Origin: Eledone cirrhosa
Lineage: Eukaryota
Length of the DNA: 64,000 nucleotides
Reading direction: 5' to 3'
Assembly: GCA_964016885.1 (NCBI GenBank)
Contig: OZ024745.1
Coordinates: forward strand, 119,226,001 to 119,290,000
The notes beneath the pieces were generated by a model. The model had not been told where the DNA came from. It saw only the letters and a list, made by a program, of their open reading frames with translations, and made no database searches. A program made the position numbers and the translations under genes. Position 1 is the stretch's first letter. The number at the start of each line of letters is the position of its first letter. This document shows, one piece after another, positions 2,078 to 52,543 of this stretch.

Positions 2078-2280
2078 GAACAAGTAAGACCCCGACGGCT
2101 GAGCTCTAGCCGTTTCGACGGCTAATTCTGGACTCAGCGTCCAGAATTAGCCGACGAAACGGCTTGAGCTCAGCCGTCGGGGTCTTACTTGTTCCTATTA
2201 CCCACTCTACTACCCTAAGTATTGAGTACTTTGGTGCGTTATGGTCCACCTGATTCCTTACCACATTTCCTTCGTTTTCT
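2078..2280. mobile_element. Fold-back PLE pLTR fragment in (TA)n (family 'GAAACGGC')
   Basis: Palindrome 2078-2193 with loop tcagc, followed by a tail shared with 12922-13120, 20540-20790 and 45390-45920. Flanked by TA repeats. Confidence 0.7.
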
Positions 2281-2345
2281 ATATATATATATATATATAT
2301 ATATATATATATATATATATATATATATATATATATATATATATA

Positions 2346-2475
2346 TATAAATGAGCGGAACAATTAAACATTAAACAATCTTTTAAATAAATTAAAATAC
2401 GATCTAAATATTTAAATCGTATTTTCATTTATTTAAAAGATTGTTTAATGTTTACTTGTTCCGCTCATTTTTATA
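2346..2475. repeat. Imperfect ~130-bp palindrome adjacent to (TA)n
   Basis: 'aaatgagcggaacaa...aaatacgat' pairs with 'atcgtatttt...ttgttccgctcattt'. Confidence 0.8.
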
Positions 2476-2768
2476 ATTCTGGTATCTCAAATGAGTACCA
2501 TTGAATAATCACTGTTATAGACACCATATATAATTCCGTGGGTACTTAGTACCTAGTGGAATATTTTATCATTTATATATACATATATATAGTAATAATA
2601 ATACATTTGAAGACTAAAATCCAAAGAGGGCTCGATAACAATAAATATATATCAAGTATATAAGAACCCTAGAGCAAATATTTATTAAAATAACAGATTA
2701 AAGTTTAAGCAAAGAATCGCTGCTTTCACCCTTAACGGGATCTGAAACAATCTGAAACTAAAACAATC

Positions 2769-3392
2769 ATGCAGAAACAACACCTGAATATTTTTACAAA
2801 GAACATACCCGTACCTAACAGGAAGACATACCTAAAACTTCTGATACTGAAAACAGACTCGTTCATTAAAAGGTTCCGTTGGCGTGCCTTTTATTTCGAT
2901 AACCAGGAAAAGGCGGACAATAAACAGGATACATTTGGGTTTAAGACTTATAATAACCCTCCGAGTAAACCAGCATTGCTTTCCTTCGAAAATGATGTCT
3001 TGGAACTCTTACGGTGTATCAAATTTCGGAATAGGAGCAATTCTTTCCAGCAGGACCTGAAGAATAGAATTCGTTCTATTAAGGATTCCAGTGCCGTGCA
3101 CGTCCACTCCGACAAAACTGGCAACCTATATCAAGTGGAGCGCACTACTTACCATTAACTGCTACATAATGCTGTAACTAAGGATTACCGTAAAACCAAT
3201 CGGAGTGTCATTAATCACATCAACAATACTGGGTTTAAAATCACTTCTGAACTCAACATCCAGGACCGGACTGAACCTCTGGACTCTACTTCTTCCCACT
3301 TTACCCTGAAGGATCAGAAACGCAATTTCGCCAACAACGCTTCTATTCGGCTAATTAACCCTACAAAGTCTGATTTAGGTAGACTTAGTAAA
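2769..3392 (+). pseudogene. Penelope-like element reverse transcriptase N-terminal region (Naiad-like), truncated
   Basis: Translation KNIP...FIKRFRWRAF...FGFK...FEND...DKT.NLY. After an in-frame TAA at 3156-3158 it continues FTLKDQK.NF...[11 protein letters not shown], matching PLE RT N-terminal motifs with a DKT variant of DKG. The clade assignment is tentative. Confidence 0.75.
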
Positions 3393-4191
3393 AGGACTGA
3401 TGTCACAAAAGATTTATTTCAAACCCAAACTTCACACTAAGAGATTTCTCCATCAAAGTAATCTACCTGGAGTATGTAACTGTAATCTTAGCTCTCTGCA
3501 CCGATCAACATTTTTTCTTCATAATTTTATATACATGTCCTCTGTTTCAGGTCGTCAAGCAATGAGCACAGAGCAACGAACAAACTTGAAAACTCCGCCA
3601 GAAGCACTGGGATTGCTGCAGCAAGTGTATGGAGATGAGACGATGTCACGCTCACGTGTTTTTGAGTGGTGCAAGAGGTTTAAAGAAGGTCGCGAGGACG
3701 TGAAAGATGACTCCAGGAGCGGAAGGTGCGTAACGATCGTCGGCTGACTGTTCGACTGATGGCAAATGAGCTGGGCATGAATCGGGACAGCGTCTGGAAG
3801 ATTCTCAGTGTAGCTTTGGACATGCAGAAAGTCTGCGCGAAGATGGTGCCAAAACTACTGAACGATGACCAGAAGGGTCGACGCATGCAAGTGTGCCAGG
3901 ACATCCTGGAGCGTCTTGAAACCGAACCAGACTTGCTAGGGACAGTCAACACCGGTGATGAGTCATGGATCTTCGAGTACGACCCGGAGGGGACCCGTTT
4001 TGAAAACGACGGAACTGCGGAGGATCCCGGAAGAATCCTTCCAGGAGTGCATGGAAGCGTGGCAGAAAAGGTTGGAAAAGTTCATTAGACTCCAGAGGGA
4101 TTACGGTAAAAAAGTAAACTCTTAGTGTGAAGTTTGGGTTTGAAATAAATCTTTTGTGACATCAGTCCTGGAACTTTTCTGACCCACCTCG
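3393..4191 (+). mobile_element. Internally deleted mariner (Tc1/mariner) transposon
   Basis: TIR 'aggactgatgtcacaaaagatttatttcaaacccaaacttcacactaagag' at 3393-3443, inverted at ~4119-4169, with the right end ...cctcg|TA. Transposase remnants include the HTH region [29 protein letters not shown] and TGDESW. Confidence 0.92.
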
Positions 4192-4339
4192 TATATATAT
4201 ATATATATATATATATATATATATATATATATATATATATATATATATATATATATATATATATATATATACAGTACACACACACACACACACATATATA
4301 TATATATGTATATATATATATATATATATTCATACATAA

Positions 4340-49177: not shown

Positions 49178-50287
49178 TACACTCTACTCTGCTGAATATT
49201 GAGTGCTAATTTTGGCATACCGCCTATGGAAGCACCATAGCTACCATTATACACAAGTATATATATATATATATATATATATATATATATATATATATAT
49301 ATATATATATATATATATACATACATACATATTCTATTAGGTGGTTCACGGAGACGTTCTCTGGCAATGAAAGGAAAAAACGAAGATAAAACGTCATTAT
49401 GTGGAGCAGAGAAGCCATTTACACGCAAAGACAAAACCACGCAATTGGTATAGCTAAAGTTGTAGACTAAAATTCTATTCAGGAAACCCAATGATTCTCG
49501 GCTTCAGAGTTAAGAATAAATAAAATAAAATACAGAGGTAATAGAAATTAAACATATACTTACACACATCCATGTACGTACATACACAGGCATACGCGAA
49601 AACACTCGCCATGGGTATGCAAATACAAGCACGTACACATAAACAAAAAAAAAACACGCACTCGCATACAGAACCCACGCAACGCCTGTACCCGCACACA
49701 TACGAACGCATAAACCAAATACACATAAAAATATATATAAAAACATATATACCCATATACATGGAAAATACTCCAGGAAGCGCGCTCATACGAGGGTTTG
49801 ACAAAAGTGCTGCGACCTTTGTATCTCAGAGAGCTACGAAATATTATTTGCCAAGGGCCCGCTACTGAACAAACTCTCTGAACACTGCCCGAATTGCATG
49901 CACAAACACTTTGCAACTTTCAAATACCTTAAGCCAGTGTTAATGCCAATTGGCTAAAAAAGATTCCACCTTTTTTGTAAACCCCACTCGACAAAATACC
50001 CTCTCCACCTCTTTCCCACCCTACCCCTACCCCCTCTCGACCCGAAACACGGCACTATGGTCATGTAAGTACTTCTTACCTATCTGCTCTTTCCACATGT
50101 GGAGCGTACTTCATCTTAATACTGTATATATGTGTGTGTGTATTTGTGTATATTTATGAGTGTATGTATGAACGTATTTGTATGAGTGGCCGTAGGATTG
50201 TATGCGCATGTTTGTGAGTACGTACGTTTATATGTATTTACGTATATGTGTATGTGTGTGTATGTATATATATGTATATATATGTAT

Positions 50288-50493
50288 GACATCCAGAGTT
50301 GACATTGCACTCAGTACTCCTTTGGGAGCCCCTACATGGACACATTAGAAGAGGAAGACCAAGGTTAACGTATGTTGATGCCCTAAGGACAGACACTGGT
50401 CTGCTGGAGATACAGGACATGGCAGCGATAATGAGGGACAGAGACCGCTGGAGAGAACTCGTCCATGGATCTCGGGAATTTTACCCGCCTTAG
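50288..50493 (+). mobile_element. RTE-group LINE 3' end running into (TA)n
   Basis: [19 protein letters not shown]...DRDRWR. Confidence 0.85.
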
Positions 50494-50684
50494 ATATATA
50501 TATATATATATATATATATATATATATATATATATATATATATATATATATAAGAATTAAAATACTAGAGTGCTTTGGAGTAAAACACACTCGTCATATA
50601 GAAATGACAGTATAGGATATAGCTCAATGTATTATATATATATAAGAGGGTGTTAAAGTTTGCTTGAAGCATTGGGAAATGTGT

Positions 50685-51204
50685 AAAATACGTAGTTTAG
50701 AAAGCCACAACAATGCAGAAGGGAAATCTCGAGGTAGGAAGTGAATGATAGATAGGAGAAATAGGAGAAAGTGAAAGTTGAGAGAGACAAAGAAGAAAAC
50801 AAAACAAAGGTAGAAGGGTTACCGTAGTGGAGATTTAATCCAAATATTTCGGGCTCACGCCCATCAACGGGGGAAAGTTCCAAAAAGGGGGGGAACAGGC
50901 TAAGCCGGAGAAAGTTGTGATGTCGTTAAAACAGGAATATAACGGCATTCCTGTTTTAACGACATCACAACTTTCTCCGGCTTAGCCTGTTCCCCCCCCC
51001 CCTTTTTGGAACTTTCCCCCGTTGATGGGCGTGAGCCCGAAATATTGGGATTAAATCTCCACTACGGTAACCCTTCTACCTTTGTTTTGTTTTCTTCTTT
51101 GTCTCTCTCAACTTTCACTTTCTCCTATTTCTCCTATCTATCATTCACTTCCTACCTCGAGATTTCCCTTCTGCATTGTTGTGGCTTTCTAAACTACGTA
51201 TTTT
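50685..51204. repeat. Near-perfect inverted repeat, ~255-bp arms with a short spacer; degenerate hammerhead at 51015-51050
   Basis: Arms 50685-50938 and 50947-51204. Contains UCCC..UUGAU-GGGC(GUGA)GCCC-GAAA-UA-UU/GGGA. Confidence 0.88.
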
Positions 51205-51260
51205 ATATATATATATATATATATACTCAATGTATATATATATATATATATATATATTTT

Positions 51261-51340
51261 TTTTACCGACGGTTTCGCCTCACAAATTCTAAGATTGGAA
51301 ATCCAGAGGACTTCCACTGGAAAGATCGGCTCTTCAGAAA
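51261..51340 (-). ncRNA. Type I hammerhead truncated by (TA)n
   Basis: UUU-CUGAAGA-GCC...GGC-GAAA-CCGUCGG-UA/AAA. Confidence 0.5.
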
Positions 51341-52543
51341 GCTAATTCCCTTACATAGGACGTATAGTCCCATAGCAAGGAAATACATCGCCTACCAGCA
51401 GCTAGTGAAAGATCGTGTGGGCCGTAAAATGACCTACACGTAACTGGTCGTTTAGTAAAAGCGGGAATATTATAGACGTCTTGTTTGCCACACTACTAAA
51501 AAATACATACATATATACATATGTATATATACATATATATATATATATATATATATACATATATATACATACATATATATATATATATATATATATATAT
51601 ATATACAAATATGACCCTCCCCAAGTATAACAATATATATATATATATATATATATATATATATATATATATATATATATATATATATATATATATATAA
51701 ATACATATATATATATATATATATATATATATATATATATATATATATATATAAATACATATATATACATATATTTATATATATATATATATATATATAT
51801 ATATATATATATATAGTGAAAAATGAAACGGGAACAAAACAGAGAGGCAGATGCATCTATATATATACATACATATGTATATATACATACACATATATGT
51901 ATATATACATGCATACATATGTATATATATATATGCATACTTATGTATATATACATACATGCATACATATGTATATATATATATATATATATATATATAT
52001 ATACATATACATACATACATACATACATATGTATATATATATGTATATACATATATACATATGTATATATATATAATATATATATATATATATATATATA
52101 TATATATATAAATATATATATATATATATATATATATATATATATATATATATATATATATACACATACATATGTATATATATATATATATATATATGTA
52201 TATAAATTTTGAGTATATGTTGGTTGTATACCAACACCCTAGTATGCAGATTGGAGCACTCGACGAAGTGCGCAGGTTAGTTTGGTTACTCCGGAGTAAT
52301 GTAAAATAAAATAAAATAAATAAGTCAAATGTTTAAAATTTGGCTTCGTTTATTACTGCTATATATATTTCGGTGACTGCCATCTTTAGTTGTCCCTTTG
52401 ACGCTGAAATTCGTTTGTTTGAATTCATATGATTCCAGTTCCTCAGTGAAATAACAACCCAACCAGGAACTGGGCATATCAGAGTATTGACAGAGTTATA
52501 CACCTCAACAACATGTGTACTCGTCTCTACTACACTAATTCGG

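Follow-up and report, generated by a model that had tools for sequence, protein, structure and literature searches.

Penelope-like elements (PLEs), the sister group of telomerase, recognise an RNA of their own and make inverted insertions with a tail on one side. In the Hydra clade of PLEs (Craig et al. 2021, PMC8557442) the described features are an RxRW(K/R) motif, DKT, a CxCX5C linker, a C-terminal GIY-YIG-type domain, a hammerhead ribozyme, insertion into (TA)n and inverted, 5'-truncated copies with a tail at one end; the tail of 30-40 bp is ascribed there to resolution by the endonuclease, and the main text mentions no end hairpin ('hairpin' and 'stem-loop' each have 0 occurrences). The purified protein of PAc, a Poseidon-clade PLE of the lizard Anolis carolinensis, was shown in vitro to cut both strands of the DNA and to extend each of them (Frangieh et al. 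2024, PMC11167929); it uses two internal reverse transcriptase (RT) starts that bracket the tail, needs RNA 3' of these starts and is predicted to be a dimer. Here we analyse a stretch of 64,000 nucleotides of the Eledone cirrhosa genome (contig OZ024745.1, positions 119,226,001 to 119,290,000; hereafter the window), in which Hydra-clade elements carry a small bulged hairpin close to their ends, and we relate its two copies, M1 and M2, to where these elements stop.

How does this hairpin compare with described systems? The PAc starts lie inside the open reading frame (ORF), in an AC-rich stem-loop; a binding motif is not defined in that work, and the RNA stretch printed in Fig. S1B of PMC11167929 has, by eye, no RCUC/GAGY-NCU. 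The 3'-tail stem-loops of stringent long interspersed nuclear elements (LINEs), for example eel UnaL2 (PMC1636434), are also small, bulged, near the end and needed in cis for retrotransposition, but they are single, are found in every insertion and serve priming at the RNA 3' end. In the Hydra-clade elements there are two copies, short-ended insertions carry none and long-ended insertions exclude M2; the starts would be internal, with the anchoring copy outside the copied part. No description of the motif was found in the parts covered of the PLE literature, including PMC11167929, PMC8557442 and PMC4209133 (Repbase reports and subscription papers being outside this scope), nor in those of bioRxiv 10.64898/2026.07.22.740005, PMC7229834, PMC6765202 and PMC6189040. 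The bulged hairpin is apparently undescribed, cis-acting RT recognition elements as such being already known.

The hairpin and its host elements

The consensus is 5'-RCUC-(stem, loop 3-100 nt)-UN-GAGY-NCU-3', with the trailing NCU unpaired. The bulge 5' of GAG is conserved, with 1-2 nt, usually 2 and rarely 3, and begins with U in 24 of 32 alignment rows (non-U in 8/32). The closing pair exists in two types, ACUC/GAGU and GCUC/GAGC, and the base right after the stem can be any letter. An earlier reading of the window from its letters alone, the sequence-only reading, had listed ten occurrences of a stem closed by ACUC/G(A/G)GU and followed by (G/A)CU. All ten strings lie at their coordinates and on their strands; the second closing type, the free choice of the following base, the bulge, the second copy and the tie to element ends were missing from that account. 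Nine of the ten look genuine, and 11127 is probably a look-alike: it lies outside the training set of the covariance model described below, is absent from the matches of that model, as is its tandem twin at 10661, and has a core-pair probability of at most 0.01, while its family, B, ends elsewhere and a related family at 6388/6591 is without such a motif. The match at 4639 was likewise rejected as a look-alike.

Pairing was assessed on 32 hand-picked, end-anchored rows, with chance-looking singletons left out. The closing pair is A-U in 17 rows, G-C in 12, G-U in two and A-C in one; the anchor of both G-U rows (D2, Q1) had been set a helix too deep, and their closing pair is truly A-U. The three pairs above it are paired in 32/32 rows and nearly invariant, and the first and second upper-stem pairs are paired in 27/32 and 28/32, with exchanges of U-A for C-G and of A-U for G-C, so that the closing pair and the first two upper pairs show compensatory changes. 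With look-alike families removed (24 rows) this result stands, the closing pair being paired in 24/24. In a 26-row alignment 96.5% of cells are paired, and the covariation score of 0.327 was equalled in 0 of 500 shuffles and exceeded all slid controls; relatedness among rows is disregarded by both kinds of control, and knowledge of the motif guided the choice of rows. Neither double-change pairs nor further pair types exceeded the shuffles in that alignment. The middle core pair is inverted on both sides in two copies from other animals (L183 M1 and L186 M2; L numbers denote loci), the only kind of support that the invariant core can give. Rfam covariance models gave no gathering-level match in 10 junction loci; against the window, among the 150 matches listed, they gave repeat-driven microRNA-type matches plus one sub-threshold HH9 and nothing like the hairpin. 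The motif is a real, clade-specific RNA structural motif. An internal promoter, one of the roles first offered, is rejected by the variable loop and the covariation.

The motif belongs to Hydra-clade PLEs and not to all hammerhead elements. Window families G, A and C are Hydra families by their ORF, family H713 has 713-aa open frames elsewhere in the genome, and divergent fragments led to three more families of 830, 928 and 715 aa (H830, H928, H715). Families D, E, F, H and I and the copies at 12268 and 20318 are putatively Hydra by motif and end geometry. The N-terminal RWK-type motif reads RLRWR in H713 and G, RVRWR in H830, RVRWK in H928 and RMRWK in H715, and DKG is changed to DKT (SDKT in four of five proteins, SDRT in H928). 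All four full-length proteins have the CxCX5C linker, followed in three by YIG/YVG-x-T and in the aligned H713 copy by a variant; there is no CCHH motif, and CxxC and CxH surround a conserved E and N, as judged by eye in an alignment. Pfam and PDB searches of the element proteins gave no match. The clade is abundant and young here, with 12,369-44,136 first-look candidates per protein search, which are not copy numbers. The 830-aa family (L078:556-6849) is very young, 150/150 listed matches being 100% identical over 237 aa; its tandem unit of 6.1-6.5 kb has a 3.7-kb 3' untranslated region (UTR) filled with microsatellites, and stem II of its hammerhead is very long.

The sequence-only reading took the hairpin for a second cis-element beside the hammerhead, conserved across unrelated PLE and retrozyme lineages. 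Its existence as a second conserved element is supported; its supposed range is not. All ORF-linked families are Hydra clade, and although the 3' regions do not align by blastn, except for one physical overlap, the proteins form one clade at 38-54% identity. Two Neptune-type families have hammerheads and two alternative ends, and their tails are without the motif, a result that covers tails only, the junctions lying outside the data. These tails of 50-60 nt (L062:6875-6990 (+), L053, L014, L063) share scattered conserved letters, possibly a candidate for a different clade-specific anchor. Family B (window 10645-11290, +) is also without it: a young, retrozyme-like, 466-bp tandem unit with no ORF, 99% identical copies and arrays elsewhere, whose HH9-like hammerhead (11016-11087) scores 38.6 bits, below the gathering score. 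Its inverted insertions have one long and one short end, separated by 76 nt and corresponding to window positions of about 10824 and 10900, a long way from the 11127 string. A B-related hammerhead family forms an inverted pair at window 6388 (-) and 6591 (+), with a GAAA..TTTC end hairpin in common with B. The range of the motif is thus narrower than first held, and its role clearer.

Is the hairpin perhaps a partner of the ribozyme? A complete hammerhead core stands upstream at four of the ten listed occurrences (45848, 31877, 48569, 11127) and is truncated or unrecognisable at the others. Candidate cores occur in all autonomous families, in several variants (CAGAAGA, UUGAGAAG, CUGAGAAG), none at the Rfam gathering score; variant cores of autonomous families were seen at window 45737-45804, L110/L111 and L024, and the 3' UTR of H715 (L116/L118) contains a pair of hammerhead-like cores, the first soon after the stop codon and the second before M1. 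We consider it very improbable that the hairpin acts on the hammerhead as a switch or as a partner in folding, even though stem III of Hydra hammerheads frequently reads ACUC-N-GAGU. Such a stem III occurs, by eye, in 5 of 26 Hydra-clade rows of File S2 of PMC8557442, where most Hydra hammerheads have other stems III; GAGC-type and G-following copies of the hairpin would be non-cleavable triplets, the two copies lie at variable distance from the ribozyme, and the closing pair covaries inside the hairpin. The two copies and the variable distance also disfavour the ribozyme tertiary partner first suggested. The downstream GAGU was rejected as a hammerhead substrate strand, having C or G at positions that forbid cleavage.

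The host genome, of 3.0 Gb, is rich in (TA)n, and its short interspersed nuclear elements (SINEs) appear to be of octopus type. As a regular expression the originally described pattern has 15 matches in the window against 2.5 ± 1.6 (maximum 8) in 100 block-wise dinucleotide shuffles; in an unselected sample of 400 kb of the same genome (40 stretches of 10 kb) the count is barely above shuffles (32 against 22.3 ± 5.8, maximum 35, 20 shuffles), and a looser pattern gives 96 against 100.8. Raw counts are uninformative as a test in unselected DNA. Position is informative: 21 of the 32 matches have a same-strand (TA)n run 30-80 nt downstream and four have one that far upstream, and since TA runs sit downstream and rarely upstream, the motif marks element ends. 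A covariance model built from hand-picked rows finds 15 window sites at 17.5 bits or more, namely nine of the ten sites first listed (six of them in the training set) and six new ones. Of its 48 matches in the 400 kb, 41 score at least 16 bits; 37 of these 41 have a TA run 25-110 nt downstream, against 9.2% of random positions (10/41 upstream), and 15/41 are preceded on their own strand by a hammerhead-like core (random 10%), against three in the opposite-strand control. In viral contigs no relatives were found.

We give scarcely any credence to chance or passive inheritance, by which the motif would be short strings in AT-rich repeats or the remnant of one old family with its whole end conserved. 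The weak raw counts, the look-alikes at 11127 and 4639 and the confinement of all carriers to one clade are points in its favour. It has been largely refuted by flanks that do not align between families, which also speaks against a single alignable family, by compensatory changes, by the successful prediction of M2, by the 37/41 model matches with a downstream TA run and by recurrence in other animals. The motif could serve as a practical marker with which to find and bound Hydra-clade copies whose ORF has been lost.

Judged from sequence, the motif and its end spacing recur in Hydra elements of other animals, including coral and sea-cucumber consensi. Seven intact-looking Hydra PLE loci with (TA)n flanks (L183-L189) come from contigs filed as bacterial metagenome-assembled genomes, which are probably host-animal contamination. 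The motif is in the ORF-linked element of six (partly decayed in L186), and the seventh ends short, yet holds two other motif-bearing elements. M1, M2 and ATG follow in this order in L183, L186 and L188, and the ends, set by eye, fall at -7..-4 (L183), -8..-4 (L188) and -7..-6 (L184/L189 and L187), all including -6. Seven further metagenome loci comprise four (L065-L068) of one coral-type family with a 4-bp stem only and three without the end. Inspection by eye of the six Hydra consensi in File S7 of PMC8557442 shows a clear motif in Hydra-2_Amil, Hydra-2_Ajap and Hydra-1_Ajap (twice before the ORF), a variant one in Hydra-1_Crog and doubtful ones in Hydra-1_Amil and Hydra-1_Obim.

Two copies and two ends

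Tandem junctions show the hammerhead first, then M1, M2 and the ATG. Two copies are present in all seven own-genome families for which there is a junction (H713, H830, H715, G, C, H928 and A, those of A taken from different copies), and at all junctions seen the ATG follows the end of M2 by 12-65 nt. The M1-M2 spacing is 67-163 nt in six families, compared with the tail of 30-40 bp given in PMC8557442. M2 is absent from ordinary copies and from the window, and because it is never seen in ordinary copies its presence could be predicted. A search that asked for RCUC alone, 4-8 nt past the long end, gave 379 genome matches against 0 in the control for family G, with the rest of the motif and a Hydra ORF following in the loci examined; a family-G M2 also surfaced unasked at L137. 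For families C and A, one of six and one of two matches was a true junction with a full M2 and an ORF. The prediction was borne out in three of the four window families tested.

Copies of the elements give way to (TA)n at one of two places: the short end lies about 6 nt 5' of M1 and the long end about 6 nt 5' of M2. The ends share a short U/A overlap with the target. In the family-G insertion at 2078..2275 (L001), the left arm halts just before M1, and the right arm carries M1 and halts where M2 would follow. Of the 350 anchor matches immediately 5' of M1 or M2, 128 continue across the motif. The other 222 comprise 191 that end at a TA run within -14..+9 and 31 that show neither behaviour. Position -6 falls within the most frequent overlap windows: for M2, -6..-3 in 41/56 (G) and 17/26 (H713) and -8..-5 in 7/9 (H830), and for M1 of H713 -6..-2 in 14/27. 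Since ends halt before each copy, the optional PLE tail corresponds to the stretch that begins immediately 5' of M1 and finishes immediately 5' of M2. Among 41 inverted pairs, 38 are M1+M2, three M2+M2 and none M1+M1, about 5e-9 against 50:50 by hand, part of these loci having been selected for a long end with the other end free.

Proposed anchoring and its alternatives

What might make the ends fall at two fixed places? We consider it likely that the two hairpins between hammerhead and ATG, with ends about 6 nt before either, are RNA anchors that set two internal RT starts. On a read-through (or circular) transcript, each hairpin would bind one subunit of an RT-endonuclease dimer, the contacts being the bulge, the NCU that stays unpaired and the invariant CUC/GAG core. 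Both strands of (TA)n would be cut by the dimer; each resulting 3' end would anneal to the UA-rich register that lies 6 nt 5' of one hairpin, and from there prime complementary DNA (cDNA) synthesis away from that hairpin. The cDNA started at M2 would copy M1 and the spacer, the tail, and the one started at M1 would not; where the two meet, an inverted, one-tailed insertion would result. The anchoring hairpin itself would be left uncopied, which could explain why M2 is missing from ordinary copies and from the window. We infer binding, dimer, RNA form and priming in Hydra elements, this being the simplest reading beside the PAc results. Of the roles first offered, RT binding fits best, because each of the two copies has ends at a short and fixed distance on its 5' side. 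This is reminiscent of the hepadnavirus epsilon stem-loop and of telomerase RNA anchors, where a structured RNA binds the RT and fixes a start or stop; the Hydra-clade elements would differ in priming from target DNA.

The chief rival is recognition of the hairpins as DNA, in single-stranded or extruded cDNA or donor DNA, the GIY-YIG endonuclease cutting about 6 nt 5' of each, so that the ends would be resolution cuts and not sites of priming. It predicts the same end geometry, a tail made by endonuclease-mediated resolution has been proposed (PMC8557442), recognition of plasmid DNA by the D. virilis endonuclease is reported in PMC11167929 to have depended on the tail, and folding is as good on the opposite strand. 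We regard it as unlikely: the ends of the PAc tail coincide with RT starts on an RNA template in vitro (PMC11167929), the U/A overlap with the target repeat is what priming predicts, and the stems hold about 11 G-U wobbles to 6 A-C once the two mis-anchored rows are corrected, a modest lean toward the sense strand. Alternatively, the hairpins could be 5'-leader elements for translation or stability of the uncapped cleaved RNA, or an autoregulatory operator to which the element's protein binds, with ends falling nearby for another reason. After hammerhead cleavage M1 and M2 would indeed lie in the 5' leader, with M2 close to the ATG, but the ATG lies at distances that vary five-fold, the ends at an almost constant one, and the pairing of an M1 end with an M2 end in each insertion would be left unexplained; we hold it to be decidedly unlikely. 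A secondary role in translation of the cleaved RNA alongside anchoring is possible.

Several observations weigh against anchoring by the hairpin pair. Neptune-type elements and family B make one-long-one-short insertions without the motif, which is therefore not needed for twin ends in general. The genome search for M2 returned no match and no tandem junction for family D, and five of the six C matches and one of the two A matches were not junctions. Some ends miss -6, namely a second class of H713 M1 at -10..-7 (6/27) and C M1 at -8..-7 (1/2); H715 M1 and the short ends of family A are blurred by variable TAA/AT runs, and those of H830 M1 are scattered. Ends were scorable only within -14..+9, and loose AT-rich anchors may mislabel a few pairs. 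The training instances were picked partly for nearness to TA runs, the three core pairs barely vary and yield little covariation evidence, and single-sequence folding is equal on both strands (34/44 each), with no discrimination between them. In other animals, the coral-type loci L065-L068 and Hydra-1_Amil have a partial motif only, and Hydra-1_Obim a doubtful one.

How might an RNA-binding protein read such a small hairpin? A TAR-like arginine sandwich is a lead suggested by letter order: as in HIV TAR and 7SK (PMC6189040), a purine, a bulged U and one base are followed by G-C, A-U and G-C, matching in order A22, U23, G26, A27-U38 and G28 of TAR. The loop topology is opposite, and the bulge-initial U is found only in the 24 of 32 rows given above; the lead is further weakened because the inverted middle pairs of L183 M1 and L186 M2 would break the U.A-U triple.

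The wider claim is that corals, molluscs and echinoderms share a conserved pair of short, portable RNA anchors by which an RT-endonuclease dimer, related to telomerase, is made to start two cDNAs from one RNA at set internal positions. This claim is tentative, quite possible and somewhat short of probable. If it is true, the hairpin would give PLEs their first defined RNA recognition element, tail and inverted insertions would come under one rule, and any RNA tagged with the hairpin pair could be written into (TA)n sites. The lone in vitro study found two internal starts, not what sets them, and the hairpin is a small, mutable candidate. Anchoring predicts that starts move with the hairpins, 6 nt upstream of them, and the clade has young, intact copies in this genome.

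Features of the window

Features of the window, with positions on its forward strand; model start is the first position of the covariance-model match where it differs.
Feature	Position	Strand	Remarks
Inverted family-G insertion in (TA)n	2078..2275	.	locus L001; boundaries by eye
M1, family G (GAAACGGC family)	2204..2230	+	long (tailed) arm of inverted insertion; covariance model
M1, family H713, GCUC/GAGC type, long loop	2627..2675 (model start 2625)	-	inverted arm; covariance model; new
Hydra-clade PLE ORF, N-terminal fragment, family H713	2769..3158	+	protein search
Probable M1, old remnant, family F	11899..11925	+	single copy; no clear hammerhead; covariance-model training member
M1, GCUC/GAGC type	12268..12298 (model start 12266)	-	covariance model; new
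M1, family G	12965..12991 (model start 12963)	-	long arm of inverted insertion about 12920-13116, other arm short; new
M1, GCUC/GAGC type, partly decayed	20318..20346 (model start 20316)	-	covariance model; new
M1, family G	20663..20689 (model start 20661)	-	pattern and covariance model; new
M1, family A	31877..31905	-	G for the middle A here, poor fold alone; relatives keep GAGU
Hammerhead core, family A	31975..32017	-	upstream of M1; pattern match
Hammerhead-like core, family G (CUGAGAAG variant, long stem II)	45737..45804	+	by eye; no Rfam match
M1, family G	45848..45874	+	long arm of inverted insertion about 45392-45919, left arm short; locus L122
M1, family I	46949..46991 (model start 46947)	-	pattern and covariance model; new
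M1, family C, one-base bulge type	47326..47348	-	covariance model
M1, family H, long loop	48337..48399	+	closing stem begins 48337, not 48344
Hammerhead core, family C	48497..48518	+	pattern match
M1, family C	48569..48591	+	family's M2 and Hydra ORF at tandem junction L167, elsewhere in the genome
M1, family D	49181..49207	+	inverted left arm ends 7-4 nt before the motif
M1, family E	52255..52297	-	inverted partner arm ends 6-4 nt before the motif
Hammerhead core, family-E insertion	52549..52585	+	short inverted arm; pattern match

Hammerhead-like cores without a downstream motif stand at window 35705 (+) and 51337 (-), the latter belonging to an inverted element with its end a short way past the core. 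A recurrent family that ends before (TA)n (L059:1049-1086, L049, L081) has a motif-like but irregular hairpin. The window also holds non-LTR (long terminal repeat) retrotransposon remnants at 18084-18738, 54369-58481 and 60108-60506, which from their motifs we take to be zinc-knuckle ORF1, AP endonuclease and RT, and, at 3379-4088, what is presumably, likewise from its motifs, a mariner-like transposase fragment.

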